Source: a virus. Taken from it: DNA of 64,000 nucleotides. Positions 32,984-46,994 of the stretch are shown in pieces. The stretch's first letter is position 1. Each line of letters starts with the position of its first letter. A program made the translations under genes and the position numbers. The notes beneath the pieces are model-generated. The model was not told the origin of the DNA and did not search any database. It saw only the letters and a list, made by a program, of their open reading frames with translations. The DNA is taken from the IMG/VR virus record IMGVR_UViG_3300050120_000135; one strand, 5' to 3'.

Positions 32984-34072
32984 TCAGATGCCGATCATGC
33001 TGGCGATGGCGAACGGCTGACGGATAACCGCGCCGAGCGTTCCGCCGACCATCTTCTGCTTGTAGCTCGACAGGTCGGGGATCAGCCGGCCAGCGCGCAT
33101 TTTTACGTTGTAGGCGACGAAGCCGGTCTTCTGGCTGCGGACGTCGGTGCAGATCAGCTGCGCGAAGTTGCCGCCGACAACACCTTGCGGGTTGCTTGCC
33201 GACTGAATGCCGTACTGCACCGCAGACACGATCTTCAGGTTCGGGAAGTTCTTCGACAACAGGTCCGACACGTTGACGTCGAACGAGTTAGTCGCGGTGA
33301 TGGCGCCTTCGGAGATCGGCGACAGCGCGAGCACGAAGTTCGACTTCACGTTGATATTGCCGCCGGCCTGCTGGATCAGCTGCAGGGCGAGCGACTGGAT
33401 ATCGAGGAAGATCTCGTTCGGGGTCGCGGTGATGACGTTGTTCGTCACCCACTGGTTATTGCCGTAGGCCTTCGGCGACGGCGTGATAGCCGCCGTCAGG
33501 TTCGGATCGTTCAGGAAGCCGTAGTTCTGAAGACCGGCGATGCCGAAGAAGTAGCTCTGGTTCTGGAACCGGTTGATGGCCCAGGCCGCAGCCGCGTTAA
33601 GCTGGTTCAGCCAGTTGATCTTCGCGAGGCCGACGACATCGAGCTCGCGATCGCCGTACTGCAGGATCGTCTGGAACAGGAACGGCTGGCGCGAGGGGAA
33701 GTTCGTGTTCGCGTTCACCGACCCGTTGTTGCTGTAGTCGCCATAAGCCGACGTCTCGCCCGTGTGCTCGACGGTCGGGAACATGACCGAGTTCAGCGTC
33801 CAGTCGCCCTTCTGGACTTCGTCGAAGATCGACTTGGCTTCAAGCGGCGAGAATAGAATCTCGTACACCTGCGGGTCGATCATCGTCGACAGCCACACCG
33901 GAATGCCGGTGTTCGGCGTGGTCGTCAGCTGCGGCTGCGCGTCCATCGCCATGCCGATGTCTTCGGACCATCCGTCGGGCACATAGTGACGGACGTCGGG
34001 AAAGACGGCACCGAGCGCTTCGAACCTGCGCTTGTCGCCGGTGAACTGCGTGCGTGCTTCGATCAAATTCAT
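32984..34072 (-). CDS. major capsid protein (DUF2184-like / HK97-fold)
   Basis: 362 aa. Position follows the protease/scaffold and decoration-like genes. Family recalled from the N-terminal and GDYSNNG region. Confidence 0.8.
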   Translation of the reverse strand: MNLIEARTQFTGDKRRFEALGAVFPDVRHYVPDGWSEDIGMAMDAQPQLTTTPNTGIPVWLSTMIDPQVYEILFSPLEAKSIFDEVQKGDWTLNSVMFPTVEHTGETSAYGDYSNNGSVNANTNFPSRQPFLFQTILQYGDRELDVVGLAKINWLNQLNAAAAWAINRFQNQSYFFGIAGLQNYGFLNDPNLTAAITPSPKAYGNNQWVTNNVITATPNEIFLDIQSLALQLIQQAGGNINVKSNFVLALSPISEGAITATNSFDVNVSDLLSKNFPNLKIVSAVQYGIQSASNPQGVVGGNFAQLICTDVRSQKTGFVAYNVKMRAGRLIPDLSSYKQKMVGGTLGAVIRQPFAIASMIGI

Positions 34073-34178: not shown

Positions 34179-35156
34179 TTAGATGACGTTCGAGACCTTG
34201 ACGATCTCGCCGTTGGCGCCGGCCGACTTGGCGATCCACTTCGTCTCGATCGCGTTCTGCGACGTGATGGCGGTGGAGCTGACGACAGTGTTGCTGTCGA
34301 CCACATAGGTACCAGCCGCGCCGGTGGTGCCGGTGAGCTGCTGGTAGACCTTGGTGCCAGTGTCGACACCGGATCCCGAGATGGTTTGCCCGCCAGCGAA
34401 GCCGCTGACCACGGTGCCGCCGACCGTCAGAATGCCGTAGGTACCGGTCAGCGTGGTCGAGGCAACCGTCTGTTCCGGAATCGAGAGTGCATAGGTGCCC
34501 TTGAGTCCGAGGGTGCCGCCCGTTTCGGTCGACGTCAGCTGCTCTACGATCTTCGTGCCGCTCGCCGCACCGACGACGGTCGCGCCGGCGTACAGATTGC
34601 CGGAGCCGACCGCGGTCACCGTCATCACGTTGCCGGCGATCGAGCCGGTGACGGAGAACGTGCCGGCAGCAACCGACGATGCCGAGCCTGAGCCGCCGGG
34701 CGGCGTCGCGCCGGCAGCTGCGAAGTATGCCGTGCCATCGGCGAAGTTCGCGAACGCCTTCATTCCGACCTGCGCGAGCGTGGCGCCGGTGTTCCTGATC
34801 CAGAAGTCGCCGTTGTTGAAAACGACGGCCTGCTGGCCCTTCAGAAGCACAAGACTCGCGGTCGCGAGGTAGGGAGTGATGAGACCGATCTGCTCGCGGT
34901 GGATAAGACCAGCGGGCAGGCCGGAACCGAACGTGTCGACGATCGCGGGCGCGTTGTCGTTGTCGACGCGCTCGTAGGACAGCCACGCGAAGCGGCCGAC
35001 CACGATGCCGTTGACGAGAGCACCAGCAATATAGCCATTGCCGGAAACGAGCGCGCCTTCACCGGCGAGCACGGTGCCGCGCGGGTTGGCCGAGGCAAAG
35101 TCGCCTTCGACCGCCGGGGCCTGCATGGTGTTAACCTGGTTGGGAAAGTCGGTCAT
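34179..35156 (-). CDS. head structural/decoration-like protein with two TGSIAG-type modules
   Basis: AGGAGA lies 7 nt before the ATG (the first M in the track is TTG). 325 aa. The C-terminal half holds two tandem about 60 aa repeats. Confidence 0.7.
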   Translation of the reverse strand: MTDFPNQVNTMQAPAVEGDFASANPRGTVLAGEGALVSGNGYIAGALVNGIVVGRFAWLSYERVDNDNAPAIVDTFGSGLPAGLIHREQIGLITPYLATASLVLLKGQQAVVFNNGDFWIRNTGATLAQVGMKAFANFADGTAYFAAAGATPPGGSGSASSVAAGTFSVTGSIAGNVMTVTAVGSGNLYAGATVVGAASGTKIVEQLTSTETGGTLGLKGTYALSIPEQTVASTTLTGTYGILTVGGTVVSGFAGGQTISGSGVDTGTKVYQQLTGTTGAAGTYVVDSNTVVSSTAITSQNAIETKWIAKSAGANGEIVKVSNVI

Positions 35157-35183
35157 CAAAGTGTCTCCTGGTTTCGATTTTCA

Positions 35184-35241: not shown

Positions 35242-37398
35242 TCAGCCCGCCTTACGGACCTTGGCAGCGTTCGGGAAGCGGCTGTTGAAGTCGCTGGTGG
35301 TGGCGCTGTCCTGCGCGATCGTGGCGTGCTGGCGCGCGCCAGGAGCCGGGATGGCGTCCCACAGGGCCTGCAGCGCCGGGAGCTCCTTGATCTTGGAGAC
35401 GTCGCGGTCCTGCATTTTGAACGCCTGACGATAGACGCCGTCGGCGCTGTCGAAGGCCATGTCGAGAACGCCGACGATCGGCTGCACGTGCGCCTTGGCC
35501 GCGGACACCGCGTTCATGCGCGCGATCGTGGCGTCGGTGTTGGCCTTCAGCGCCGCGTCCATCGCGCCCTTCGACACGAAGTCGGGCTTTTTCTTCTTTC
35601 CGTCGGGCCCGGCTTCGGGTTCGACAACAACGCCATCCTTGGCACCAGCCTTCGCCAGAGCCGCGGCCTTCGCGGCCTCGTCGTCGGGATCGCCTTCGCC
35701 CATGCCGGGCATGCCGGCAATCACGTCGTCGGGGACGCCCTTTTCCTTCAGGTAGGCACGCACGGCCTCCATGGGACCGCCGGCGTCCATCGACGTATCG
35801 TCGCCGTCGATATCGTCGTCGCTGTCGAGTTCGTTCGGGTCTCGCTCGAGGTCGCTATCCTCGACGGTCTTGTCGCCGTCGATCGACGCCATCAACTTCT
35901 CGACGCCCTCGATCACGCCGACCAAGTCGCCGTCCTGCGCCAGCTTGATCTTGCCAAGCGACTTGCGCAGCGCCTTGATGAAGTTCGGAGTCGACTCCTT
36001 GAACTTGCCGGGCTCGAACGTGCCGAGCGCGCCGGCGATATTCGGCATCGCTGCGTCCATTGCCAGCCGCGGCCGCAGGAACGCGGTCAGAGCGCCATAC
36101 GCAACGGTCGCCTTCATGCTCTTGAGTGCCATCTTCATAGTCTCCTGTTGGGGTTGCAGTGCTTCGTCAAGGGCGACGTCCGAACCGGCTCGTCCCTTTT
36201 TAACCAGGCAAACATGGTTTCCGACCATGTTGCGCATCACGCCGTCGTAGGGTTCGCCCTCGTAAGTCCCCGGCGTCATGTCCGCGTCGTATGAATAGGC
36301 GCTGGACAATTCTTTTTGCTTCTTGCTGTCGACGTGATCGCGGCCGTCGCGCGACCAGACTGCAAGGCTGTTGAACAGATACGGGTGCTGGTACTCGGCT
36401 TCGGAGCCGACGGTGCCGACCGTGATATCGCCATCGTGCTCGTCGGCCGAATGCGGCACGTGTCGATCGAGCAGCGGCAGATTGTGAAACGTCGAGGCTG
36501 CCTTCTTGATCTCGTCTGGATGGCGCAGCAACCGGTAGACCCTGCCGGGATCCAGGCCGAGCTCGTTACCCTTCGGGATCTCGCGGCCGTAATACGGATT
36601 GATGCCGGCCTTGGTGATCGGCGCGCGCTTGACGTGCAGCCGCTCGAACCCGTCGACGTTGCGGCCCTGCGACGTGTCTCGATCGAACGCCAGCTTGACC
36701 AGCACCCCCCGGCGCAGATCCTCCAGCCCTTCCGGCGCCCGGTCGAACGCCAGCTCCGGACCGCGGATGCCGGCGATATCGGCCGCCAAAGCGGCGAACG
36801 CCGCGTCCATGGCGCCAAGGCCGGGCTTCATGGGCCAATCGTTCGTGGGGGATATCCCCGACCCGCCGCAGCCAGCGCACCCACGGCCGTTACAAGCTGC
36901 GTGGACGCCGTCCTGCGCCGTATCGTCGGGGTCGTCGATCGCGGCCCACTCGGCAAGTTCCTCGCCGTCGGTGACATTTCGCTCGTCGATCGTCTTCAGC
37001 ACCGCCGGATGCATGGGCTTGGGCAGCATGTCGATCATGGCCCACGTGTAGCCCGTATGCTCGCCGTCGTTCAGCAGCGGAGCGAAGCGCTCGTCGACCG
37101 CCTGCGCGAACGTATGAAACACCATCCCGTTCGGGGTCTTGCGCTGGTCGAGCAGCCGGCGATCGCCGATCGGCGCTGTGCCACCGGTTTCCTCGGCCGC
37201 CTCGCGCTCCGCGCCGCGCAAGATGGACTCGCCGTCGTCGACCTTGCCACCAGGCAGGCACCAGTGCCCCGCATAGTTCTCCTCGGCCGGCGATCGGTGC
37301 AGGAACAGCATCGAGCCGTCCGGCGCCACGAACAGCGTACCCGCGGCATGGCCTTTCGCGCCGGCCTGGTCGACCAGCTGCGGCTTCTTGATCGCCAT
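35242..37398 (-). CDS. Nudix hydrolase fused to DUF2213-like prohead protease/scaffold protein
   Basis: GAGGTG RBS before MAIKKPQLV. Perfect Nudix box GGKVDDGESILRGAEREAAEETGG. The middle region (PITKAGINPYYGREIP...LSSAYSY...YDGVMRNMVGNHVCLVKKGRAG) is DUF2213-like. The C-terminus is acidic and helical. Confidence 0.85.
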   Translation of the reverse strand: MAIKKPQLVDQAGAKGHAAGTLFVAPDGSMLFLHRSPAEENYAGHWCLPGGKVDDGESILRGAEREAAEETGGTAPIGDRRLLDQRKTPNGMVFHTFAQAVDERFAPLLNDGEHTGYTWAMIDMLPKPMHPAVLKTIDERNVTDGEELAEWAAIDDPDDTAQDGVHAACNGRGCAGCGGSGISPTNDWPMKPGLGAMDAAFAALAADIAGIRGPELAFDRAPEGLEDLRRGVLVKLAFDRDTSQGRNVDGFERLHVKRAPITKAGINPYYGREIPKGNELGLDPGRVYRLLRHPDEIKKAASTFHNLPLLDRHVPHSADEHDGDITVGTVGSEAEYQHPYLFNSLAVWSRDGRDHVDSKKQKELSSAYSYDADMTPGTYEGEPYDGVMRNMVGNHVCLVKKGRAGSDVALDEALQPQQETMKMALKSMKATVAYGALTAFLRPRLAMDAAMPNIAGALGTFEPGKFKESTPNFIKALRKSLGKIKLAQDGDLVGVIEGVEKLMASIDGDKTVEDSDLERDPNELDSDDDIDGDDTSMDAGGPMEAVRAYLKEKGVPDDVIAGMPGMGEGDPDDEAAKAAALAKAGAKDGVVVEPEAGPDGKKKKPDFVSKGAMDAALKANTDATIARMNAVSAAKAHVQPIVGVLDMAFDSADGVYRQAFKMQDRDVSKIKELPALQALWDAIPAPGARQHATIAQDSATTSDFNSRFPNAAKVRKAG
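36979..37353 (-). other. Nudix domain of the protease/scaffold fusion
   Basis: The Nudix box lies at 37180..37251 (Gx5Ex7REUxEExGU fully satisfied). Confidence 0.85.
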
Positions 37399-37548
37399 CG
37401 GGCACCTCATGGAATTGGTGCCGGCGGGCGGGGCTAACCCACTCTGCGCGCCCCGTCGGGCCTCGCCGGCAAAGCCTGTGCGCGTCACGCGCGGCTGAAG
37501 TGAGGAAGCACCAAGCCGCCGTCTAAGCCGGCGAACCGGCCACGCACA

Positions 37549-37986
37549 TTACCTCAGAATATCAACCTTCAGGATAACCCCGGTCTCCCGGCGCCCCTGT
37601 CGCGCAGCTATCGTGCGCATAGCCTTATTGTTGACGTGCGTCGCCGACTGAATCGAGCGGACGTTCGGCAGGCCCTGCGCGTGACCGACTAATTCGTTCC
37701 ACATCGCGCTGTAGACGCCGCGACCGCGGAATTCCGGCAGGACGTAAGACTGATGCACCCAAATTCGCGCAGCATCGACGTCCCACGTGATGACGCCGAC
37801 AGGCAGGACGTCGCGACCGTTCTGCGCATAACCGACAAAGGCGTTCAGATTTGCGCCCATGTTCAGCTCGCCGTCGCTGAGACCATTCTCGACGTTTTCA
37901 AGCCACCCACGAACCGCGAGCTCGGCCGCCGGCGTGCTGTTGATGCCCTCGATCAGCTCGACGCGCAACGGTACCGGTAGGTTCAT
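37549..37986 (-). CDS. GNAT family N-acetyltransferase
   Basis: 145 aa. VHQSYVLPEFRGRGVYSAMWNELV...NNKAMRTIAARQG is the acetyl-CoA binding core. Confidence 0.8.
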   Translation of the reverse strand: MNLPVPLRVELIEGINSTPAAELAVRGWLENVENGLSDGELNMGANLNAFVGYAQNGRDVLPVGVITWDVDAARIWVHQSYVLPEFRGRGVYSAMWNELVGHAQGLPNVRSIQSATHVNNKAMRTIAARQGRRETGVILKVDILR

Positions 37987-38147
37987 AGCCTGCCGAGCAA
38001 CAGCAGGATGATAAGGATCACGACGACCAGGCCGAGCCCGCCGCCGAGATATGGACCGCGGCCGTAGAACGGTCCGCCACCGATACCGCTGAAGCCGCCG
38101 AGCAGCAGGATAATCACGATGATGAGTAGAATGGTTCCGAGCGACAT
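37983..38147 (-). CDS. DUF3309-like small membrane protein (54 aa)
   Basis: Not in the ORF track (under 60 aa). GGAAGGA RBS upstream. MSLGTILLIIVIILLLGGFSGIGGGPFYGRGPYLGGGLGLVVVILIILLLLGRL. ATGA-coupled to the GNAT gene. Confidence 0.65.
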   Translation of the reverse strand: MSLGTILLIIVIILLLGGFSGIGGGPFYGRGPYLGGGLGLVVVILIILLLLGRL

Positions 38148-38167
38148 GGTCGTTTCCTTCCGGGGGG

Positions 38168-38362
38168 TTACTCGAGTCTGCCTTTGCCGATCGGCGCCGA
38201 CAACAGGTCCTGCTCGAACTTTTTCTGCGGCATCTTCTTTCGAGCCTCGAGATCCTTGATAGCTTCGCGCATTTGCGCGGCAGTCACGCCCTTCGGCGGC
38301 ACCGGTATATCAGCAGCGATCGCTGGCGCAGCCAGCAGCAACAGGATGGCAATTACGTGCAT
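38168..38362 (-). CDS. small secreted protein (64 aa)
   Basis: Signal peptide MHVIAILLLLAAPAIAA|D. Confidence 0.55.
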   Translation of the reverse strand: MHVIAILLLLAAPAIAADIPVPPKGVTAAQMREAIKDLEARKKMPQKKFEQDLLSAPIGKGRLE

Positions 38363-38366
38363 GGTT

Positions 38367-38558
38367 TCAGCCTGCGTTGTCGCGGTGCTGCACGACGACG
38401 GCGCCGCTGCCCTGCATGCGTTCCATGTTCTCGCGGTGCGATCGCTTGTCGTTGCGGTCGATCAGCCGATAGACCACGACGGCGATCGTTAGGCCCACGA
38501 CCATTGCCGCGATCGGCCAGCTCTCCGAAATAATCTTCAGCGCTTCCATCCTGCTCAA
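38367..38558 (-). CDS. small single-pass membrane protein (63 aa)
   Basis: TM helix WPIAAMVVGLTIAVVVY. Confidence 0.55.
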   Translation of the reverse strand: MSRMEALKIISESWPIAAMVVGLTIAVVVYRLIDRNDKRSHRENMERMQGSGAVVVQHRDNAG

Positions 38559-38899
38559 TCCTGCGTTTCGTGGGCGAAGGGATCGGCAACATGCTCCGGA
38601 ATCGGCGGCATGGCAACTATGTCCGAGCGCCCGTGCCAGCTATCGCAGCAGAATTGAATGCGACCGTCGGCAATGATGTAGTGGCAAACCAGGTCCCGTT
38701 TGCTCTCCCGCGCTTCGGCCGAGCCCGGCTCTCCGGGCCATCGGGCGAATGTCTGCTTGAAGCTCGGTTCGAACGACGGGCGCGTGACGTTGCCGTTGAA
38801 CTTCCATCCGTCAGGCAGCGGGTGCATTTCCTCGCACGCCGGGCACCAGTGAAAATACCGGCTCCGGCCTCGACGAAGGATGGCGCTGACCTGGCTCAT
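38555..38899 (-). CDS. Cys/His-rich protein (114 aa), DUF6527-like, paralog of next gene
   Basis: HWCPAC...WKFNGNVTRPSFEPSF...CHYIIADGRIQFCCDSWHG. Confidence 0.6.
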   Translation of the reverse strand: MSQVSAILRRGRSRYFHWCPACEEMHPLPDGWKFNGNVTRPSFEPSFKQTFARWPGEPGSAEARESKRDLVCHYIIADGRIQFCCDSWHGRSDIVAMPPIPEHVADPFAHETQD

Positions 38900-39207
38900 G
38901 CCTTCAGCTCCGGCTCGTCCGTCTTCTGCACCGAGACACAGCGGCCGGCTTCAATATAACCGTGCCAGCATCCATTGCAGTTGATCGACGGCGAGAATGT
39001 CGGCTTATCGCGATCGCCGTTCCAGTCCCACTGCGCGATACCGCCGTTCAACCCTTGGCCGTCGCGCTTCAGCGACGTCTTGCCGGCGATCACGAGACCC
39101 TCGCAACGATGGCCGCGCAGCGGGCACTTAAATCCGAATCGCTGCTCTTGACCTGGTGTTGCGGGTTCGAAGTCGATCGTCTCGAACTGCACCTTGGCGT
39201 CGCTCAT
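38896..39207 (-). CDS. Cys/His-rich protein (103 aa), DUF6527-like
   Basis: WDWNGDRDKPTFSPSINCNGCWHGYIEAGRC. ATGA-coupled to the MuF gene. Confidence 0.6.
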   Translation of the reverse strand: MSDAKVQFETIDFEPATPGQEQRFGFKCPLRGHRCEGLVIAGKTSLKRDGQGLNGGIAQWDWNGDRDKPTFSPSINCNGCWHGYIEAGRCVSVQKTDEPELKA

Positions 39208-40031
39208 GAGAACCCCGCAATAACCGAGATCGAAACGCACCGGCAGTTCGGCAGCTCGCCGGGGATGATCCACTTCTTGACGTGCGGGTCGAACCAGCCT
39301 TTAGCGACGTCGTACAGCTTGCCGTTGTTCGCAACATGCGTCGGCCGCGGATGCTTGCCGGCGCCGCTATGGCGCCACTTCGCCTTCGTGATGCCGAGCT
39401 CCGTCTGCCGCGCGCGGTTCATGGCGCTGGTGGCAAGATTGTTCTGGCTCCTCGCAATGAACGCCGCGCGCCGTTTCGTGACGCCGTAGTTTTTCTCCAG
39501 CTCCTTCGCCAGATAGCCCATGTCACGGCCGCGCTGAACGGAGCGCATCACCATGCCCTCGACGTTCTTCAGGTACTGCTCCGGAATCGACTTGATGAGC
39601 GCTACGTTCTGCGCGCGGGTTGCGTTGAAGACGTCCCGCATGGGGCGCGTCATCTTGAACTTCACGCTGAAGCCACCGTCTCGCAGGATTTTGCGCAGCG
39701 CCGCGTCAGTGCGATCGCTCACCGCTCCCGTGAAGAAGTCCGCCAGATCCCACGCTGCTCGATCGAAGTTCTTCTGCCACCGGCGCACCAGCGCCCGGAT
39801 GGTCCGCGTGAGTTCGTTCGCCGGCAGGATATCGTCCATCGCCAGCAACGGCTCGTTGTTCTTGTAGCGCTTCAATACCCAAAACCTAACCGAGCGGTCC
39901 ATTTCCGCGATCAGCTTCTCCAGCTTCACGCGATAGGCGGCCTGCAAGCCTGCGTTCGGGTGCAGCGGCCGGAGAACGATCTCCTTGCCGCGAACCGGCT
40001 TGACTTCAGTTGCTCGAAACGTCCCGTGCAT
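39204..40031 (-). CDS. phage head morphogenesis protein (Mu F / SPP1 gp7 family)
   Basis: C-terminal KWRHSGAGKHPRPTHVANNGKLY...IPGELPNCRC. The start is uncertain (the ORF extends to 40130). Confidence 0.8.
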   Translation of the reverse strand: MHGTFRATEVKPVRGKEIVLRPLHPNAGLQAAYRVKLEKLIAEMDRSVRFWVLKRYKNNEPLLAMDDILPANELTRTIRALVRRWQKNFDRAAWDLADFFTGAVSDRTDAALRKILRDGGFSVKFKMTRPMRDVFNATRAQNVALIKSIPEQYLKNVEGMVMRSVQRGRDMGYLAKELEKNYGVTKRRAAFIARSQNNLATSAMNRARQTELGITKAKWRHSGAGKHPRPTHVANNGKLYDVAKGWFDPHVKKWIIPGELPNCRCVSISVIAGFS

Positions 40032-40212
40032 CGAGCTCTCCCGCGATCGAGCGCATCTCGCTGCGCGTCTGCTCGGCGATCGACAGCCCCTTGCGAATTG
40101 CGGTGCGCGCCTGGTCAGGGTGACCGCCATCGAAATGCCTGGCTGCAGTCTCGAACAGCTTCTTCACCTGGTCGACGTAGCCGGCGTCGATCGCGTCGGC
40201 CGCGCTAACCAT
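40006..40212 (-). CDS. hypothetical protein (68 aa)
   Basis: ORF track entry. Helical composition. Confidence 0.45.
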   Translation of the reverse strand: MVSAADAIDAGYVDQVKKLFETAARHFDGGHPDQARTAIRKGLSIAEQTRSEMRSIAGELDARDVSSN

Positions 40213-40468
40213 CCTTCCGAAACGATTCCGACGAACTGCCGGAACCCTCCCCGTTTTTTGAGTTCGAGCCCTCCAGCTCGGACAGCGCCGCTTCCATCTC
40301 GGCCAAGCCGCCTTCGACGTCGTCGAGATTCTCGCGGTGCTTGGCGAACACCGTCTCGCCGCGCCGGCGCAGATCCTCGCGCCGCGCCATCAGTTCGGTG
40401 GCCTGGTCGTCGAAGTTCTTCAGGTCGCCCTTAATCGCCGCGGCGAGCTCGCGAAACTTACCGGCCAT
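40205..40468 (-). CDS. coiled-coil hypothetical protein (87 aa)
   Basis: Internal ATG MAGKFRELAAAIKG... of ORF 40205..40558. Confidence 0.45.
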   Translation of the reverse strand: MAGKFRELAAAIKGDLKNFDDQATELMARREDLRRRGETVFAKHRENLDDVEGGLAEMEAALSELEGSNSKNGEGSGSSSESFRKDG

Positions 40469-40703
40469 CGTGATGCGTCCTTTGTGTCGGTCGATTGTGC
40501 GCGACAGGTGCAGGTCGAGCAGCTGCGCCAGCAGCAAGCATGGTTCGGGCTTCGGCAATGGGAATTCCCATCATGCGCGCGACCTTGACGACTTCCCGAT
40601 TCTGCTGGCGCCAAATCTCCTCGCGAGCGTTCTGGCGTTCACGAGGACCCGGGTGCCGCACAATACGCGGCGTCAGCTGGCGCTTTGCCGACTTCGCGAC
40701 CAT
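40458..40703 (-). CDS. hypothetical protein (81 aa)
   Basis: ORF track entry. Basic N-terminus. The C-terminal composition is doubtful. Confidence 0.35.
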   Translation of the reverse strand: MVAKSAKRQLTPRIVRHPGPRERQNAREEIWRQQNREVVKVARMMGIPIAEARTMLAAGAAARPAPVAHNRPTQRTHHDGR

Positions 40704-40876
40704 CAGTTTTCCTCGGCGTCGTCCTTCGGAGTGCCGCGCTCGCGCTTCACAGGCCGGCCAAGCTCGTCGACGATCTCCGGCTGAAACGGCGGGTCGCCTT
40801 CGTTGACGCGGTTCAGCGTCCCGTCATCGAGCATGCCGGGGGCGCGATCGTCAGGTTCGCGTGGCGACTTTGCCAT
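40703..40876 (-). CDS. hypothetical acidic protein (57 aa)
   Basis: The ATG lies 3 nt after the portal-fusion stop. Not in the ORF track (under 60 aa). Confidence 0.35.
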   Translation of the reverse strand: MAKSPREPDDRAPGMLDDGTLNRVNEGDPPFQPEIVDELGRPVKRERGTPKDDAEEN

Positions 40877-40878
40877 CT

Positions 40879-43800
40879 TCAGACTTCCTGCAGCACGATG
40901 TTGTTGCCGCTGCGCGAGACCACCTTGAACCTCGAGCCGGACTTGAACAGAACCTCGGCCTCGCTCGGGTGCGAGGACAGCTTCTGAATGTCCTTACCAT
41001 TCTTGCCGTGAACGGTAAAGTTGTGGTCTCCGGACCACGTCCCCTGATTTTTGCTCGTGCTCATGAAGCCACGCTCCTCGACCACGTAGCCGACTTCGTA
41101 AAGCGCTGACTGCTGACTATCGAGCGATGCCTTTCGATAGGTCGTCTCGTTGTGCGACGGCAGCTTGTCGAGACCGGCGTTCAGCGAACGCCTGAACTTG
41201 TCCTGTGCTTCGGTCATCTTGCCCGCGCGCAGCTGGTTGTTGACCGAGACGTAGTGCGAGCCACTGTAAGCGATGATCGGCACCGCATCAGCGGCCGTCA
41301 TGTACTTCGTCAGGCCCGCGCTCTTGACCTTGTTGAAGGCGGACTTGATGTACGCTTCGCTCGCCTTCGCCCCGCCGAACATCGCCTCGGCCGCCTCATA
41401 GTGCAGCTTCAGCGCCGGATCTTTGTCGAACTCGGCCTGGAGCTCGGCTTTGTCCTTCGCCAGCTTTGCCTCGGCTTTTTTCTTGGCGTCCTCGACTGCC
41501 TTCTTCTCGGTTGCGGCCTTCTCGGCTTTCGATGCGGAATCGTACTCGGCCTGCACCTTCGGCAGCATCGCCGTCAGGTCCTTGTAGTCCTGCACCTTCT
41601 GGTTCAGCTGCTCCGGCGTGAGATCGTTCTTGCCAGCGTACTTGTCGTTGAACTCCTTGATGAGCGTCACGCCGGCGGGTGCGCTGGTGCTGATCGGCAG
41701 CGTGGTCGACTTCGCGGCCTTCTTCAGCTCGGCCTCGGTTGCCTTCGGCGCCTTCGACTTTTCGCTGATGGCGCCGGGCGCCACCTTCGCGATCGCGGCC
41801 TTGCCAGCGGGAGAAGCAGCGTCGACGAACTTCTCGGCCCATGCCGGATTGTACTTCAGCAGGCCCTCGATCGCGTAGGCGTCCTTTTTGTCGACAGCGT
41901 CGGCGATCGCGCCGAGAAACGCGGGGTAGTCCTTCGGCGGCGTGTACGTCGCGCCCTCGGCCGGCTTCGGCGCTTCATTCAGCTTCGGCGCCGGCTTGCC
42001 AGCCATCGCAGCGAGACCCGCGTCCGCCTGCTTCTTCTCGGCGACCTGCTTGCTGATCTTGTCCTGCTGCGCGGCCTTTTCCGCTGCGAGCTCCTCGGCC
42101 GACATCTTCGTACCGAAATACTTGCCGTCCTTTTTCTCCAGCTTCATGCCGAGCGACTTGGCCTGGGCCGGCATCGAGACCGACGGCCAGCCCATGGTCG
42201 TCATCAGCTCCTTCGGTGTGACGCCGTTGGTCAACAGGTGCGCAATGTGTTCCTTCTTGGTCTTGAACTGCGATGCGGCAGCCTTCGACGCGTTCAGCGC
42301 TGCAGTGTCCGGATGATCGGGGTGACCGGGCAACAGCAGGTTCTCGAGCTCGTCGACGCTGTTGTCTTCCTTCTTCGCAGCGCCGGAGCCACCACCAGAG
42401 CCGAATTTACCATCCGGACTGCGCGGGTGCTTGCTCTCGTCGAACTGGCCCTCGTCCATAGCGAAGACGTCGGGTGCTACCTCGGTCATACCCTCGTCGT
42501 CGTCGCCCGCAAGCGGGCTGAACAGAATGTCCTGCGCGCGCTCGCCCTTCTTCTTGCGTCGGCGCATCGCTGCGATCGGAATGCCTGCGCTCGGCGCGGT
42601 AACGAGCTCGGCCTGGTCGAGCGCTGCCTCCATGATGGCGACGTCAGCGTCTTCGTCCTGCGCGATCGAGAACCGCCTCGCCATGTCCTGCTTGCGCGCG
42701 ATCAGCCGATCGGCCAGCGCCTTGTCATCACCGACGGCGCTCCGGATCTTGTCGTCGGGTATCGACGTGACGCGCTCGATCGAGGACTTCAGGTCCGCGT
42801 CCGACATCGAGCCGAACAGCCGGGCAGCGTCCGGCGACATGCTCTTGTCGCGCATGGTGTCGAGCTCGGTCACCTTGTCGCCGAACGCGTTGCCCTTCGG
42901 GCCGCCCTGTGCGCGGTATCGCAGCGAACCGCCGACGTCGAGCGTGTGCGGCTTGCCGGCCATCATGCCTTGGTTATCACCACCGGTGCCGGCAGCATCC
43001 CAATTCGACAACCACGCGTGCACGGCGAAGTCGGCAGCTGCTGCCTTCTTCTCCTCGGCCGAGAATTTGCTGATGTTGTTCTTGTCGAGGTCCTGCCACG
43101 CAGTCACGACGTGATCGGGCCCGGCCTCGCGATAGTCCAGCGTATTGACGCCGGCCAGCTTATACAGCTTGGCCGCGGTCTTCTCGTTGGTGACGTGGTC
43201 TTTGGTGGCGGGCTTCTTGACGTAGAACTTCTCGCCCGCGTCGTTGGCGTAGACGCCGCCCTCGTTGCTACCGAGCTTGCCGCCCTGCTTCTTCAGCTTC
43301 GACACGTTCAGCGGGTAAGACGAACTCTGCGAGGACCGCGACGCACCGGGCTTTGTCGATCGCGACTTGCCAGCCGTCGACGACTTCAGCGTCGTACCAC
43401 CGCCCCCCGACCCAAACTTGCCGTCGTCCGCTCGTGGATGGTCGCCTTCGGTCCATTCGTCACCTGCCAGTGCGGCCTCGATCATGGCCTCGTCGGTTGC
43501 GACCGTGCGGTCGGGCTCCTCGCCCCCGCCTTCTCCACCACCGTCCCCGCCGCCGCCAAACGGGTCTTCACTGCCGCCTGTCGGCTGCTCCGGCACGTCG
43601 TCGGGGTTGATATCCGAATACCGCGAGTCCGGCTGCGCGGCAACGGCCTTGCGAACCTCGCCCGGGTCGAGCACGCCGCTATCAATGCGGACCTGGTCGG
43701 TCTCGGCTTCGATCTTGTCAATCTCGGCCTTCTCCTTGTCGGTCATCGACCAGAGCGGCTCGAACTCGAACGTGATCTCCTCGTCAATCTCGCCCCACAG

Positions 43801-45333
43801 GTGGAGCATGATGAAGTGAATGCACGCCTGCAGCTGGTCGCGGAAGAACGATTCCTGGTAGGCGTGGATCCAGTCGTAGAACGCCCTGATCTCGCCCTCG
43901 GACGACGCGTTCAGCCCGGTCGGCGTAATGCCGAGCAGGATGATCAGCGGAATGCCCGACACCGACGACATCTGCTCCTGGCTTTGGGCCTGCAGCGCGT
44001 CGAGCGTGCCGAGCGGCGTCGAGACGTTGAAGAACTCCTCGGTATCCTTGTCGAGCGCGAACGCGCCGGCGTTCGAGCGCATAACGTTGAACAGTTCGAT
44101 GCGCTTTAGCGCTTCGACGCCGCCCTCCTGCAGGGAGCCGGCCATGTTCATATAGACGCCGCTGACCGAGAATGACTCGATCAGATCGGCCACCGCCTGC
44201 CTGGTGCGCAGCCAGTTGTCGACGTAGGGCTTCGCCATCTGCGACATCGACAAGCCGCCGAATGCATAGGCGGGCTTGAGAATGTCGGGCACTTCACGGC
44301 CGACAAAGCACATGAGACGCGAGCGATGGACTTCGATTCCGTTCGCGTACCAGCGATCGGGATTGTAGAAGCCCTCGCGCAGCGGGTTAGCGGCCTCGTA
44401 GGTCGCCGGATAGCACCACATCGGCTCGACACAGCGGAACGCCTTGATCGAGCCCTTGTGCACCTTGCCGCGGCTCGTGGCATTGCTGCCATTGCCAATC
44501 GACGACTTCAGCTCGACGTCGGCCTCCCTGCTGTCGTGCTTGAAGAACCGACCAGCACGCGGCTTGATGTCGATGAACAGGTGATATCGACCGAACCAGC
44601 CATCGCCCTCGGCGATATTGTAGAAGGCGTCCTTGAGCTTGAACTTGCGCATCGCATCTTCAAGTTCCTTGATGCGCTTCGCCTTCTCGGCGCTGGCTTT
44701 CGCCGCAACCGACTTCTGCACGCGGTCACGATCGGCCTGCTTCTGCTCTGCCGCCGTTGCGGCCGCGGCCTCCGGACCTTCGCCCGCCTCATCATCGAGC
44801 GGGTCGGCGCCGGCGGTCTCCTCGGTCAGCTGCTGGTCGGTCTCGCCAGTGTCCGCGCTGGTGGCGCTGACGACGTTCAACTTGATCCACTTGCGCGTCA
44901 TCTCGGTCGCAATGCGTTCCGAGATACGACGGTACTCCGGCCGCTGCGTCAGCTGCGCCAGATACGAATAGCCGATAAAGCCGATGCCTTCTTCGAACAG
45001 CGCACCGTCGCCACCGCCCCATTGCATCAGGCCTGCGAACGCGGTGCTGCCGAGCGCCTCGTCCAACGCCATCGGTTTGGTGTTCTTCGGCAGCACACCT
45101 GGCGGTGGCTCGAACGGCTGGAACGGGTTAGTGCCGGCGAACCCCGCAGCCTTCTTGCTCGCGCCTGCAGGCCTCAGCCGACGCGCATGCTCGATGACAG
45201 TGTCGCTGATTTTGAGCGGCTTCTTCTCGGCCGCGGTCGTTGCCGGCGCAGCTGCCTTCGCGCGCGCAGCCACCTTGGCCTCGCGCTTCGCACCCGCGCG
45301 ATTGAACCCGACGGGCAGCCTCGTCACTGTCAT
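40879..45333 (-). CDS. portal protein fused to a kinase-like domain and a C-terminal ADP-ribosyltransferase toxin domain (polyvalent protein)
   Basis: 1484 aa, ATGA-coupled to TerL. aa about 85-560 are portal-like (DUF1073/HI1409-like by recollection). aa 675-870 are kinase-like. aa 1340-1484 are ART-like: AYSGSHYVSVNNQLR, TTYRKA, FMSTS, SEAEVLF. Confidence 0.9.
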   Translation of the reverse strand: MTVTRLPVGFNRAGAKREAKVAARAKAAAPATTAAEKKPLKISDTVIEHARRLRPAGASKKAAGFAGTNPFQPFEPPPGVLPKNTKPMALDEALGSTAFAGLMQWGGGDGALFEEGIGFIGYSYLAQLTQRPEYRRISERIATEMTRKWIKLNVVSATSADTGETDQQLTEETAGADPLDDEAGEGPEAAAATAAEQKQADRDRVQKSVAAKASAEKAKRIKELEDAMRKFKLKDAFYNIAEGDGWFGRYHLFIDIKPRAGRFFKHDSREADVELKSSIGNGSNATSRGKVHKGSIKAFRCVEPMWCYPATYEAANPLREGFYNPDRWYANGIEVHRSRLMCFVGREVPDILKPAYAFGGLSMSQMAKPYVDNWLRTRQAVADLIESFSVSGVYMNMAGSLQEGGVEALKRIELFNVMRSNAGAFALDKDTEEFFNVSTPLGTLDALQAQSQEQMSSVSGIPLIILLGITPTGLNASSEGEIRAFYDWIHAYQESFFRDQLQACIHFIMLHLWGEIDEEITFEFEPLWSMTDKEKAEIDKIEAETDQVRIDSGVLDPGEVRKAVAAQPDSRYSDINPDDVPEQPTGGSEDPFGGGGDGGGEGGGEEPDRTVATDEAMIEAALAGDEWTEGDHPRADDGKFGSGGGGTTLKSSTAGKSRSTKPGASRSSQSSSYPLNVSKLKKQGGKLGSNEGGVYANDAGEKFYVKKPATKDHVTNEKTAAKLYKLAGVNTLDYREAGPDHVVTAWQDLDKNNISKFSAEEKKAAAADFAVHAWLSNWDAAGTGGDNQGMMAGKPHTLDVGGSLRYRAQGGPKGNAFGDKVTELDTMRDKSMSPDAARLFGSMSDADLKSSIERVTSIPDDKIRSAVGDDKALADRLIARKQDMARRFSIAQDEDADVAIMEAALDQAELVTAPSAGIPIAAMRRRKKKGERAQDILFSPLAGDDDEGMTEVAPDVFAMDEGQFDESKHPRSPDGKFGSGGGSGAAKKEDNSVDELENLLLPGHPDHPDTAALNASKAAASQFKTKKEHIAHLLTNGVTPKELMTTMGWPSVSMPAQAKSLGMKLEKKDGKYFGTKMSAEELAAEKAAQQDKISKQVAEKKQADAGLAAMAGKPAPKLNEAPKPAEGATYTPPKDYPAFLGAIADAVDKKDAYAIEGLLKYNPAWAEKFVDAASPAGKAAIAKVAPGAISEKSKAPKATEAELKKAAKSTTLPISTSAPAGVTLIKEFNDKYAGKNDLTPEQLNQKVQDYKDLTAMLPKVQAEYDSASKAEKAATEKKAVEDAKKKAEAKLAKDKAELQAEFDKDPALKLHYEAAEAMFGGAKASEAYIKSAFNKVKSAGLTKYMTAADAVPIIAYSGSHYVSVNNQLRAGKMTEAQDKFRRSLNAGLDKLPSHNETTYRKASLDSQQSALYEVGYVVEERGFMSTSKNQGTWSGDHNFTVHGKNGKDIQKLSSHPSEAEVLFKSGSRFKVVSRSGNNIVLQEV
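40882..41316 (-). other. ADP-ribosyltransferase (R-S-E, C3/VIP2-like) domain of the portal fusion
   Basis: Arg in TTYRKA, the STS motif in GFMSTS, and ExE in PSEAEVLF, in canonical order and spacing. Confidence 0.8.
42724..43311 (-). other. protein-kinase-like domain of the portal fusion
   Basis: GSNEGGVY (Gly loop), FYVKKP (Lys), NEKTAAKLY (Glu), HAWLSNWD (catalytic-loop-like) and LDVGGS (DFG-like). Resembles atypical actin-fragmin/PI-kinase-like kinases. Confidence 0.5.
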
Positions 45334-46994
45334 CGGCGGCGCCGGCGAGGCATGGCAGCCGCAGCCGCGAGAAGCTCGTCTGAAATCTTCATCGGCTTCC
45401 TCTCGACGCGCGCGAACAGCATCATGACGGCGTCCGCAAGGTTGGGCGACTTCACGCCGTCGGGCTGCTTGTTAATCAGCATCTTGCCGATCGTACTTTG
45501 CCCGTAGGTCGGCTGCGTGAGCTCGCCGACCAGCTTCGTGAAGTACGGCATGTTCGACGGTATGCAGATGATATCGTCGTGGCTGCAGGGTTTGCCTTCC
45601 TTGATAAGCCGGTAGGTATTGCGGAAGCGTGTCCGCAAATTCCACCAGCCCTGCGCCTTGCTGTTTTGGTAGTAGTCCTTGTTCTTGCGGCCCTTGACGT
45701 CTTCGCCATCGGGATCGAATGGCGATGCCGAACCGCGGAAGGCGATAACCTCGAGCTCGGCGATCTTCTCGCGCGCACGGGCTTCGTTTAAGATTCGAGC
45801 GTCGCCGCGAGCGCCGGCGCCGAGACCGTCGCCATCGTATTTGAACCGCGTGACGCCGTTCTTATCGGCCATAGCGAAGGCTTGCGCCACGCTGTCGAAA
45901 ATATCGCCGTCCTGCCCGGTCGGCCATTCGCGCAGGTCCGTCAGACGCACGCCATGCGCGGCGACGAACGCACAAAGGTCCGCGCCCTGGTCCGCGATGT
46001 CGAGAGCACCATGGCGATCGCCAGTCGGCACGAGACCGATTTTCTGATCCGCGTCGACCGCGGCCATCACCCATGCGTGCGGAATAACGACGCCGGTGAC
46101 CGACGCGTCGTAGTTAATATCGATCTCCTGCGCGATCACGACAGGGTCGTCGATATCCTCGATCTGCTTTTGATACCACGCCTCGTCTTTGCGTGGATCA
46201 TCACGCCAATGCAGCGTGAAGACTTCGACCTTGCCGCTGTGCCGGCGCACGGAGAACGAATTGCCGCGGCCCTTCGGTGTCGAGATGTCCTGCCGGCAGT
46301 TGGTCGTCTGCGACAGCGCGAAGTCGACCGACTTCGGGTTCAGCAGATGCGAGCTCTCGTCGACGAAGTAAATGCCCTTTCGATCGCCGCGGCCGATGTT
46401 GTCACCCGACTGGCCCGTCATGGTCGAGCCGTTGGGGAACAGAATGCGCATGTGCGGCGCGTGGCGGTCTTTGTCCCAAGTGCCTTTGAACTCCCGCGGG
46501 AGCTCCTGCATGAAGATGCGGGCTTTCCAGAACAGCGACTTCGGCTCGCCGAGCTTGTCGACGTAGTCCTCGGTCACGGAGCCGTAGCCGATGTTCATGC
46601 CTGCGTGAAACAGGCAAAGCGTGCAGCCGAGCGCTACCTCCAACCAGGATAGCCCGCCATCTCGCGACTTGTCGGTGAGACCAGGCTTGCGCTCTTTCCA
46701 TTTGCGCACGACGAACTTCAGCCACTCGACCTGCTTGTCGAACATGACGAACGGCATCATCGGGTCGGCGCCAATTTCAACGCGCCGCGGGTCGACCGTC
46801 ACTCCCCAATCGCTGATGAAGTCCCACGGGTTTTCCCGGTAGTGCTCACGAAGCCCGGCGAGCAGCGCCTCGCGATCGCGCTTCGGCATCGAGCGTATCG
46901 AAGCCAGCCGATCGGCGCGCTGCTGCCAGATGGCAGCGTAACCAGGCTCAGGGTTTTTCCAGTCGAAGGCGACGGCCTTCTTGGCCCTAGCCAC
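45330..46994 (-). CDS. terminase large subunit
   Basis: 554 aa. Lies upstream of the portal. ATPase/nuclease-type motifs such as GIYFVDESSHL. Confidence 0.9.
   Translation of the reverse strand: MARAKKAVAFDWKNPEPGYAAIWQQRADRLASIRSMPKRDREALLAGLREHYRENPWDFISDWGVTVDPRRVEIGADPMMPFVMFDKQVEWLKFVVRKWKERKPGLTDKSRDGGLSWLEVALGCTLCLFHAGMNIGYGSVTEDYVDKLGEPKSLFWKARIFMQELPREFKGTWDKDRHAPHMRILFPNGSTMTGQSGDNIGRGDRKGIYFVDESSHLLNPKSVDFALSQTTNCRQDISTPKGRGNSFSVRRHSGKVEVFTLHWRDDPRKDEAWYQKQIEDIDDPVVIAQEIDINYDASVTGVVIPHAWVMAAVDADQKIGLVPTGDRHGALDIADQGADLCAFVAAHGVRLTDLREWPTGQDGDIFDSVAQAFAMADKNGVTRFKYDGDGLGAGARGDARILNEARAREKIAELEVIAFRGSASPFDPDGEDVKGRKNKDYYQNSKAQGWWNLRTRFRNTYRLIKEGKPCSHDDIICIPSNMPYFTKLVGELTQPTYGQSTIGKMLINKQPDGVKSPNLADAVMMLFARVERKPMKISDELLAAAAAMPRRRRR

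Follow-up and report, generated by a model that had tools for sequence, protein, structure and literature searches.

Introduction

Enzymatic cargo on phage head proteins has already been predicted computationally, in 2017 and again in 2022 (PMC5512222, PMC9503650). The polyvalent proteins described by Iyer, Burroughs, Anand, de Souza and Aravind in 2017 include ADP-ribosyltransferase (ART), kinase and GNAT domains, and that account predicts their packaging and injection with the DNA; it also describes a kinase clade in which the C-lobe is truncated and an insert separates the catalytic His from the Asp, as well as a portal-InPase fusion in phage BcepF1 (PMC5512222). Nudix or ART domains fused to portal, MuF or capsid-processing peptidase, together with head-associated NAD/ADPr enzymes, are reported as well (Iyer et al. 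2022, PMC9503650; PMC5512222). In T4, the Arg-specific ART Alt and anti-defence internal proteins enter the prohead core, are processed by gp21 and are co-injected with the DNA (PMC3012670; PMC5512222). Temperate phages encode MuF (SPP1 gp7-like) polymorphic toxins with a variable C-terminal toxin domain, often an ART (Jamet et al. 2017, PMC5576092). A 2026 paper on how portal proteins counter the stringent response deals with the core of the T7 portal and not with enzymes fused to it.

Here we analyse the head genes of an uncultivated virus in a stretch of 64,000 nucleotides (IMG/VR record IMGVR_UViG_3300050120_000135), hereafter the window. A preliminary description had read these genes as a delivery platform for a set of NAD- and nucleotide-modifying enzymes.

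Results

Setting of the head operon

The window, which is phage DNA throughout and has no host flank, comes from a metagenomic PB1/E217-like myovirus of ~73 kb. TerL, portal, MuF, protease and MCP genes lie in a single late structural operon on the minus strand (Table 1). No match was obtained when the 14-kb head module was compared by megablast with 50,697 phage records, and the best genomic match to the portal was a Bradyrhizobium prophage at 49% identity. A tRNA scan of the window found none, PADLOC returned a weak Nudix match and nothing else, and no domain fell into an NCBIfam equivalog family. Database proteins from a 72,870-bp JGI contig, of 1484 aa (P0241) and 718 aa (the Nudix-protease protein, called from a start at 37398), are identical to those of the window, and the gene calls are independent of our reading of the ORFs. 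The four enzymatic domains first described, ART, kinase-like, Nudix and GNAT, are all present on the minus strand where they had been placed, as established by Pfam and, for the kinase, by AlphaFold and Foldseek.

Table 1. Features of the head operon and its surroundings (positions in the window).
Feature	Position	Strand	Basis or remark
Large terminase	45330..46994	(-)	phrog_2 E 5e-24; upstream neighbour of the portal, same late operon
Portal polyprotein, 1484 aa	40879..45333	(-)	portal, junction, kinase-like, junction, small wHTH-like region with coiled coil, ART
Portal core, aa ~70-600	43534..45126	(-)	Pfam PF06381 E 1.4e-70
Junction motif 1, aa 620-650, AALAGDEWTEGDHPRADDGKFGSGGGG	43384..43476	(-)	
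Predicted atypical protein-kinase-like domain, aa 672-890	42664..43320	(-)	AlphaFold + Foldseek
Junction motif 2, aa 957-987, FAMDEGQFDESKHPRSPDGKFGSGGGS	42373..42465	(-)	
Small conserved region, kinase-ART interval	42064..42276	(-)	possibly DUF3489-like winged helix
Arg-type (R-S-ExE) ART domain, aa 1290-1484	40882..41466	(-)	Pfam PF03496 + PF01129
Coiled-coil protein, 117 aa, role unassigned	40205..40558	(-)	just downstream of ART
MuF / SPP1 gp7-like head morphogenesis protein	39204..40130	(-)	Pfam PF04233 E 2e-14; phrog_324 E 6e-78
Two tandem DUF6527/BubE-like genes	38896-39273 and 38555-38899	(-)	Pfam PF20137, E 2e-7 each
GNAT acetyltransferase, stand-alone, 145 aa	37549..37986	(-)	Pfam PF00583 (Acetyltransf_1) 31.4 bits, cut-off 20.7
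Nudix / DUF2213 capsid maturation protease / scaffold polyprotein	35242..37488	(-)	748 aa from first start
Nudix hydrolase domain, aa 48-162	37003..37347	(-)	Pfam PF00293 E 1e-15
DUF2213, predicted assemblin / T4 gp21-like protease fold, aa 283-441	36166..36642	(-)	Pfam E 4e-42
Scaffold-like C-terminal region	35245..36111	(-)	phrog_2229 spans aa 265-745
Minor capsid/decoration protein	34179-35159	(-)	
Major capsid protein	32984-34072	(-)	

The portal polyprotein

Phage_portal_3 covers aa 123-547 of the 1484-aa ORF (E 1.4e-70), and this core resembles the E217 and Pa193 gp19 portals (8fvh, 9b41; E 1e-35). For the N-terminus and the middle region, Pfam and PDB sequence searches gave nothing usable. 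The full architecture was seen in no cultured phage of our collection, where the top match spans 35% of the query. At the C-terminal end, aa 1284-1481 match the Pfam families ADPrib_exo_Tox and ART (E 4e-9 and 2e-5) with scores above the curated cut-offs (PF03496, 36.4 bits against 23.4; PF01129, 24.5 against 22.3), which places the domain among the R-S-E ARTs (Alt/VIP2/C3-like). The T6SS effector Tre1 (6drh) aligns to this domain at E 4e-17 with YR, STS and ExE kept, and the motifs TYRKAS, GFMSTS and SEAEVLF line up with their Tre1 counterparts.

The kinase-like segment had no sequence match in Pfam or PDB. Its AlphaFold model (pLDDT 85.5) returned only kinases from Foldseek, namely CtkA (E 6e-5, TMq 0.61), RIO, PI4K/VPS34, HipA and Bud32, and is predicted to have the bilobal fold of the protein-kinase-like (PKL) superfamily. 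We found 151 homologues in which the catalytic motifs are invariant; the G-rich loop, K34, E45, H100, D107, D114-N115 and D127 are invariant in 35 kinase sequences. The family has no Pfam entry and amounts to ~4791 representative clusters; the HipA_C, APH and HipA_2 profiles were reached only by a five-copy relative. Cellular homologues are paired with or fused to a PTP-type phosphatase (P0057 is a phosphatase-kinase fusion); the stand-alone ones occur in Methylomonas, Vibrio and other Proteobacteria. A phosphatase of this type was sought in the window and not found.

The small region in the kinase-ART interval has a weak Pfam match (E 0.24) and is kept in relatives, where we labelled it 'midX/wHTH'. 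Homologues of the 117-aa coiled-coil protein are restricted to close relatives, every one of which bears an ART.

The protease-scaffold polyprotein

The N-terminal Nudix domain scores 58.5 bits against PF00293 (cut-off 21.1) and has an intact Nudix box GX5EX7REUXEEXGU (GKVDDGESILRGAEREAAEETGG). The preliminary description had spoken of NAD- and nucleotide-modifying enzymes, and for this domain the comparison did not uphold an NAD-modifying reading: the nearest solved structures are NudG CTP pyrophosphohydrolase (2rrk, E 5e-8) and MutT-like enzymes, while ADPRases aligned at E 0.4-0.9 with the match confined to the Nudix box. Among the solved structures compared, the domain is closest to MutT/NudG-type NTP pyrophosphohydrolases and not to ADP-ribose- or NAD-specific enzymes. 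Its NCBIfam matches all fell far under their cut-offs.

For DUF2213, the 15 top Foldseek matches of the model are the EBV, KSHV and HCMV proteases and T4 gp21 at a Foldseek probability of 0.9-1.0, although the match is modest by other measures (E 1e-3 to 4e-2, TM 0.27-0.36, model pLDDT 74). The model points, with modest strength, to the capsid-protease fold of assemblin and T4 gp21. Across 30 DUF2213 sequences the candidate catalytic residues H98, H106, S150 and H180 do not vary. By sequence, DUF2213 matches Pa193 gp24 (9b40_G, E 3e-13), and the scaffold-like region aligns weakly with the C-terminal part of the same protein. Pa193 gp24 has been detected in mature virions, and its C-terminal part binds the capsid interior under the five-fold vertices (PMC11456595). 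From these homologies, both cargo carriers, the portal C-terminus and the Pa193 gp24-like protease-scaffold, are predicted to be interior-facing or capsid-filling.

Stand-alone genes between MuF and the protease

The GNAT is, as first described, a stand-alone gene between MuF and the protease. The region of its acetyl-CoA motif A (Q/R-x-x-G-x-G/A) reads FRGRGVYSA, in which R-G-R-G is present and the final G/A position is Tyr; similarity to the PDB is weak (YpeA, E ~0.06). We found GNAT homologues at five related loci, in each of which the protease gene follows within 1 kb. The proposal that the GNAT is delivered cargo gained nothing from the relatives, where it is fused in 0 of 354 polyproteins and occurs in the closest clade only, with no sign of packaging. 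We also rejected it as an obligate partner of the ART. All five loci have an ART, but because they are the closest relatives the link is equally explained by phylogenetic inertia, and most ART loci have no GNAT.

The preliminary description overlooked both BubE-like enzyme genes in 38555-39273. The DUF6527/BubE family comprises Ser-His proteases that strip ubiquitin-like conjugates. The MuF protein is bare: its 308 aa end with the MuF domain (aa 189-300), with no C-terminal cargo.

Recurrence and exchange of cargo in relatives

The phage is one of a large clade of ~70 kb myoviruses, mostly metagenomic, in which portal and capsid protease are interchangeable docks for enzymes. Fusion of enzymes to assembly proteins had been called unusual, yet in the protein database the homologous polyproteins of portal and scaffold number in the hundreds. 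A Nudix-DUF2213 fusion is present in 101 of the best 120 scaffold homologues, and kinase and ART are both found on 98 of the best 120 portal homologues, counts that are biased because the queries themselves contain the Nudix, kinase and ART domains.

Co-occurrence in relatives, which had been proposed as a check, gave a divided answer. The coordinated set of four enzymes is not conserved: 54 of 83 related head modules have none of them, combinations vary freely, and only one other locus has all four, an outcome that goes part of the way towards the refutation which the preliminary description had itself named. Kinase and ART, on the other hand, are tightly coupled, often with Nudix. The kinase precedes the ART in 166 of the 167 proteins that hold both, an ART is present on 77% of the kinase-bearing proteins collected, and the order Nudix-kinase-ART recurs. 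One protein (P0361) consists of five tandem kinase-ART units. An ART without a kinase is found on 17 of the best 120 portal homologues.

The carrier varies as well. The kinase is on the portal in the window and at three other loci (L030, L031, L033), inserted in the Nudix-protease interval in others (L001, L002, P0193, P0366), and on MuF in a third group (P0383, P0414, P0436); MuF-kinase-kinase-ART proteins exist. Acb1, a validated anti-CBASS enzyme, occupies the Nudix slot of some scaffold proteins (P0156, P0160, P0161) and occurs on portal polyproteins. Among cultured phages, the kinase-ART cassette is present in Pseudomonas phages Dolphis and Jeremy, Aeromonas phage ST4 and Yersinia phage fHe-Yen8-01. 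In Dolphis, an unrelated phage, the kinase-ART protein is encoded two genes from a Nudix gene and away from any head module.

A junction motif at cargo boundaries

Cargo boundaries share the consensus [WF]xE..HPR..GKFGSGGG, of which we counted 193 copies in 120 portal polyproteins versus 0.3 in shuffled sequences. The junctions flank the kinase, with median distances of 39.5 aa on the upstream and 23 aa on the downstream side. Among scaffold proteins the motif is confined to those with extra cargo; the Nudix-protease protein of the window lacks it, as does the kinase-ART protein of Dolphis, which is not linked to a head protein. We considered the junctions as DNA repeats that might serve as recombination sites and rejected this, as only 43 of 90 bases match and conservation is at the protein rather than the DNA level. 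The [WF]xE element resembles the T4 gp21 site, L/I-x-E.

Discussion

Based on these findings, we lean, with some reserve, towards a model in which host-modifying enzymes are covalently attached to procapsid-interior proteins, loaded, released and injected. Twelve kinase and ART copies would hang from the portal C-terminus, and many Nudix copies would be carried at the N-terminal end of the protease-scaffold. At head maturation the assemblin-like protease domain may cut the junctions, of which the Nudix carrier of the window has none; if there were no cleavage, enzymes tethered to the portal would have no way out of the capsid. The freed enzymes would stay trapped beside the DNA and, before gene expression begins, would be ejected into the next host. 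There, the ART is predicted to ADP-ribosylate host proteins on arginine. The kinase, which is without the phosphatase partner of its cellular homologues, may phosphorylate host targets or cooperate with the ART, and the nucleotide destroyed by the Nudix enzyme would most likely be an alarmone or a signal used in defence. Accessory enzymes of the late operon would include the GNAT and both BubE-like proteases. The earlier suggestion of a system for host takeover or anti-defence is reasonable as regards the cargo, because Acb1 holds the same slots in related phages, and it fits the predictions in PMC5512222 and PMC9503650; the coordinated quartet that formed its other half finds no such footing.

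The coupling of kinase and ART raises the question of whether the kinase is an effector in its own right. It could instead serve the ART as a partner or regulator, which would be compatible with virion delivery and which we regard as possible, if somewhat unlikely. As a regulator, the kinase might silence the ART until delivery; alternatively, the two might modify one substrate in two steps, with the Nudix enzyme possibly adding a third in which ADP-ribose is trimmed to phosphoribose. A possible analogy for such regulation is found in Legionella, where the SidE ART is under the control of SidJ, a protein with a kinase fold. The nearly fixed position of the ART downstream of the kinase, its presence on most kinase proteins collected, the five tandem units, the recurrent Nudix-kinase-ART order and the kinase-ART protein of Dolphis, which has a Nudix gene nearby and is not part of a head module, all speak for a partnership. 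However, the partner of the stand-alone cellular kinases is a phosphatase and not an ART, and the portal-ART proteins that have no kinase imply that the ART needs none. The catalytic residues of the kinase are all kept, which fits either role.

Delivery itself might be questioned. The enzymes could act late in the producing cell or inside the head, the Nudix enzyme in sanitation of the nucleotide pool and others in modification of phage protein or DNA or in shielding assembly from late defences, so that fusion would serve late co-expression and stoichiometry. The genes all belong to a single late operon of structural proteins, the GNAT and the BubE-like proteases are unfused and have no evident packaging signal, the Nudix domain is nearest to housekeeping-type MutT/NudG enzymes, and deconjugation of ubiquitin-like proteins by BubE-type enzymes would be useful during virion assembly. 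We nevertheless judge this account to be quite improbable. Covalent attachment to the interior end of the portal and to an internal protease-scaffold would force incorporation into the procapsid, exchange across three head-internal carriers is hard to obtain from co-expression alone, and mature virions of Pa193 contain the homologue of the scaffold carrier. An artefactual origin of the fusions in assembly or gene calling (a chimeric contig, missed stops or frameshifts) is effectively refuted by in-frame homology over all parts of the ORFs, coding-type GC3 and more than 100 independent database clusters with the same single-ORF architecture, even though two related contigs (L001, L002) are full of frameshifts and the high GC yields long spurious ORFs, such as a 985-aa antisense ORF at 41152-44109.

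Within the delivery model, we speculate that Nudix, kinase and ART together make up a portable cassette which has its own protease-cleavable connector, the junction motif, and fits any head-internal carrier and is delivered before phage gene expression for the joint, composite modification of one host target. In this full form we hold the proposal to be unlikely. The modification might consist of ADP-ribosylation followed by trimming or phosphorylation, a combination that could be hard to reverse. If the proposal were true, the connector would be a natural, engineerable tag to load foreign proteins into phage heads. Enzymes pre-loaded in the virion would precede phage gene expression and could disarm early CBASS, Thoeris and other nucleotide-signalling or NAD-depleting defences. 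The Pfam-less kinase family, the candidate release-site junction and the cultured kinase-ART phages provide handles for experiments.

How does the locus compare with known systems? T4 directs its internal proteins with a short N-terminal capsid targeting sequence, whereas the cargo of the window, judged from the genes alone, is covalently fused to the portal or the protease-scaffold; its copy number is therefore tied to that of the carrier, unlike in T4. The cargo is internal or C-terminal on the portal and N-terminal on the protease, and there are no separate leader-bearing cargo genes. The ART is closer to Tre1/VIP2-type toxins than to T4 Alt. Tre1 of Serratia proteamaculans (6drh, 6dre) is the nearest solved ART, with the same YR/STS/ExE arrangement; it has a PAAR/T6SS carrier and is neutralised by an immunity protein, while no immunity homologue was identified in the window. 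MuF toxins bear their cargo on MuF, as in the MuF-ART fusions of phrog_595, whereas here MuF is bare and the cargo is on portal and protease. The cultured Burkholderia phages Bcep781, Bcep43 and BcepNY3 (portal-Nudix) and BcepF1 have one cargo domain and neither kinase nor ART; the BcepNY3 portal is annotated 'NUDIX hydrolase', and the profile phrog_15528 covers portal plus Nudix, while the Nudix of the window is on the protease.

A close likeness is with the polyvalent proteins, which share with the window multi-enzyme polypeptides, portal fusions and Nudix on a capsid protease. Disparate activities are joined here in the same way, portal, kinase-like and ART in one ORF and Nudix, protease and scaffold in another, among the virion genes of a portal-terminase phage. 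The kinases may differ: the polyvalent kinase of 2017 is mainly from Verrucomicrobia/Chlamydiae and Bacteroidetes (pro)phages, whereas that of the window belongs to a family seen in Proteobacteria. The domain in the window is short (~220 aa) and has H-x6-D (HAWLSNWD). The accessible text makes no mention for polyvalent proteins of a fixed kinase-ART order, an HPR junction, swapping between portal and protease, or Acb1 slots. Within the reach of these sources, the near-invariant kinase-then-ART order, often with Nudix, thus appears to be undescribed, as do the junction motif at cargo boundaries, the swapping of cargo among portal, protease and MuF and the presence of Acb1 in the Nudix slot. The kinase family lacking in Pfam (~4800 representative clusters) likewise appears to be undescribed. 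The concept of head-borne enzymes is already published, and our findings refine it rather than overturn it.

Enzymatic domains in the head operon

The preliminary description had placed ADP-ribosyltransferase (ART), kinase-like, Nudix and GNAT domains in the head module, and their presence was confirmed by Pfam searches, structures and model comparison. Next to its portal domain (PF06381, E 1.4e-70), the portal polyprotein contains an ART domain exceeding the cut-offs of both PF03496 and PF01129. Among solved structures, the T6SS effector Tre1 lies nearest (E 4e-17), and the two align at YR, STS and ExE; judged from sequence, the window ART fits an arginine-specific enzyme. The Nudix domain (PF00293, E 1e-15) has an intact Nudix box, and among solved structures it comes closest to NudG and MutT-type NTP pyrophosphohydrolases. 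The set had been called NAD/nucleotide-modifying; the Nudix identity held, and the "NAD" label is not established for this domain because ADP-ribose pyrophosphatases align with it over the Nudix box only. GNAT exceeds the Pfam threshold, and no informative close relative was found among solved structures. It has the weakest claim to a place in the proposed set, because it is never fused to another domain in the polyproteins of this analysis, is confined to the clade closest to the window phage and gives no sign of packaging.

The head interval is part of a single late operon. The entire 64-kb window is phage DNA, with genes for a helicase, a primase-helicase, DUF5131, a ParB-like protein, baseplate J and a sheath protein; no tRNA was found. 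Proteobacterial phages and prophages widely share the head backbone (portal, MuF, DUF2213, minor capsid protein and MCP). In portal and scaffold the window phage is similar to the Pseudomonas myoviruses E217 and Pa193, and no phage record matched the head module at the DNA level. Recorded proteins identical to both polyproteins come from a 72,870-bp JGI contig. A 985-aa ORF antisense to the portal polyprotein (41152-44109, plus strand) was rejected as a high-GC artefact.

Features of the head operon, in operon order
Feature	Coordinates	Strand	Remark
Small terminase (uncertain)		minus	first in operon order
Large terminase	45330-46994	minus	
Portal polyprotein, 1484 aa	40879-45333	minus	
Kinase-like domain	42664-43320	minus	aa 672-890 of portal polyprotein
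Conserved segment MTTMGWPSVSMPAQAKSLGMKLEKKDGKYFG	42064-42276		between kinase and ART
57-aa ORF	40703-40876		directly downstream of ART
Coiled-coil protein, 117 aa	40205-40558	minus	between portal polyprotein and MuF
MuF	39204-40130	minus	stand-alone
DUF6527/BubE-like genes, two	38555-39273	minus	in tandem between MuF and GNAT
GNAT	37549-37986	minus	
Nudix-DUF2213-scaffold protein, 748 aa	35242-37488	minus	
Minor capsid protein, then major capsid protein		minus	last in operon order

The 57-aa ORF and the 117-aa protein directly downstream of ART might encode a protein that inhibits ART or confers immunity to it, or a clade-specific head protein; homologues of the 117-aa protein were seen only in close relatives, all of which have ART. 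The upstream DUF6527 copy probably starts at an ATG overlapping the MuF stop codon (~39204). The DUF6527/BubE family was recently shown to be a zinc-binding Ser-His protease that strips ubiquitin-like conjugates in bacterial Bub operons. A phage copy could reverse host Ubl tagging of virion proteins, and the two BubE-like proteases add further candidate counter-defence enzymes to the picture of the head operon.

The kinase-like domain and its association with ART

The kinase-like domain was the least secure call of the preliminary description, as neither Pfam nor PDB sequences matched it. The call was upheld by catalytic residues invariant among 151 close homologues (glycine loop, Lys, Glu, His-x6-Asp, Asp-Asn and Asp) and by a modelled fold (pLDDT 85.5) that matches exclusively kinases (CtkA, RIO, PI4K/VPS34, HipA and Bud32). 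At E <= 1e-3 the family, which lacks a Pfam model, numbers 4791 representative clusters, the majority within proteins of 800-7000 aa; members include the database proteins P0001-P0120 and P0361-P0474. ART was also present in 167 of the 216 kinase-bearing proteins of this analysis and lay downstream of the kinase in 166 of these 167, and Nudix-kinase-ART is a frequent domain order. Five tandem kinase-ART units occur in P0361 (3416 aa), the only protein in which the kinase matched Pfam families (HipA_C, HipA_2 and APH); the units are also repeated in the giant proteins P0362, P0363 and P0419 (7004 aa). Segment MTTMGWPSVSMPAQAKSLGMKLEKKDGKYFG, with a weak DUF3489 likeness (E 0.24), recurs directly upstream of ART in many portal polyproteins.

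Cellular homologues, from Methylomonas, Vibrio, Desulfobacter and others, are stand-alone 230-aa kinases located 10 nt downstream of, or fused to, a PTP-type (PTP/dual-specificity) phosphatase, and no such partner was found in the window. Twenty cultured-isolate phage records carry the kinase. In Pseudomonas phage Dolphis (locus L112, MT711888.1 84125-89137), gp117 consists of an unknown N-terminal region, kinase and ART, and is labelled only "ADP-ribosyltransferase" in GenBank, the kinase part being unannotated; two genes downstream, gp119 is a Nudix protein annotated "nucleotide phosphatase".

Distribution of the enzymes among relatives

Related loci, 109 in all, were gathered from genomes, IMG/VR and a pair of metagenome contigs; enzyme counts cover the 83 with both portal and DUF2213. 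None of the four enzymes was present in 54 of these; 11 had Nudix only, six ART and Nudix, five ART only, two kinase, ART and GNAT, two ART, Nudix and GNAT, one kinase and ART, one kinase, ART and Nudix, and one (L001) all four. In L030, the closest relative, whose portal is 86% identical, the portal-kinase-ART architecture is unchanged and GNAT is present, but there is no Nudix. Loci L001 and L002 have the kinase placed between Nudix and protease, not on the portal; many frameshifts split their portal and Nudix-kinase-protease genes, and calls such as P0002 and P0004 are fragments. Given these varying combinations and the relocated kinase, the proposed four-enzyme set is not conserved. On this distribution, the four domains behave as exchangeable cargo.

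Database counts of fusions are biased, since the queries themselves contain cargo domains. With this bias, the Nudix-scaffold protein gave 1176 matches, the best 120 of which include 101 Nudix-DUF2213 fusions, three proteins in which Acb1 (anti-CBASS, PF23474, E 4e-27) replaces Nudix, one with Nudix and ART and one with Nudix and kinase. The best 120 of 546 portal polyprotein matches, equally subject to it, range from 834 to 2274 aa and contain kinase and ART in 64, kinase, ART and Nudix in 30, these three plus Acb1 in four, and ART only in 17. Their longer source contigs are mostly ~45-78 kb; among cultured phage records, coverage of the portal polyprotein reaches at most 35%. Fusions of Acb1 involve the capsid protease-scaffold in P0156, P0160 and P0161 and the portal in P0336, P0347, P0350 and P0354, which would imply pre-packaged anti-CBASS activity in relatives.

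Carriers and the junction motif

The same cargo occurs on three carriers, namely portal, DUF2213 protein and MuF. Portal C-termini face the capsid interior. The window DUF2213 domain has a homologue in Pa193 gp24, which was detected in mature virions by mass spectrometry and part of which sits under the capsid five-fold vertices (PMC11456595). The 15 best matches of its model (pLDDT 74) are herpesvirus assemblins and T4 gp21, with modest scores, and the domain has invariant His and Ser residues; we therefore read the 748-aa protein as Nudix, capsid protease and scaffold. The portal and DUF2213 carriers would take cargo into the procapsid.

Cargo boundaries carry a conserved peptide, (A/D)(D/E)xE[WF]xE[SGA][DK]HPRxxDGKFGSGGGG, with 193 copies in the best 120 of 546 portal polyprotein matches versus 0.3 in shuffled sequences. 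It lies at the boundary of portal core and cargo and on either side of the kinase, occurs in scaffold proteins only where extra cargo is inserted, and is absent from the Dolphis kinase-ART protein, which is unlinked to a head carrier. The two window copies are unrelated as DNA, and thus it is the peptide that is under selection. The [WF]xE core is reminiscent of the T4 gp21 cleavage consensus, and we propose the motif as a candidate release site. Precomputed Pfam annotation places Hint_2 (PF13403) in the portal polyproteins P0267 and P0304, which suggests self-cleavage as a possible alternative route. The window Nudix-protease protein is without the HPR junction and has a Cys-rich linker, HAACNGRGCAGCGGSG, between Nudix and protease; this linker is kept in L030 despite Nudix loss. 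Virion delivery, of which we infer every step after translation, is the best explanation of the cargo, at slightly better than even probability.

Comparison with published systems

Our literature search, incomplete in coverage, found no papers on kinase-ART coupling, the junction motif or Acb1 on head proteins. Among the features for which no description was found (junction motif, kinase-ART unit, carrier exchange, phosphatase-linked cellular homologues and the kinase in cultured phages), some look new. The central idea of the preliminary description is already in print as a computational prediction. Iyer et al. [quoted passage not shown] 2022 (PMC9503650) give MuF, portal and capsid-processing serine peptidase as Nudix fusion partners and head or portal proteins as frequent partners of phage ARTs. 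The fusions had been termed unusual, which is not justified in light of these publications. Head-protein enzyme fusions are real and of a known kind, and some features of the window variant are testable; like the window's head proteins, Bcep781-group portals bear enzyme cargo, a Nudix domain that in their case sits on the portal.
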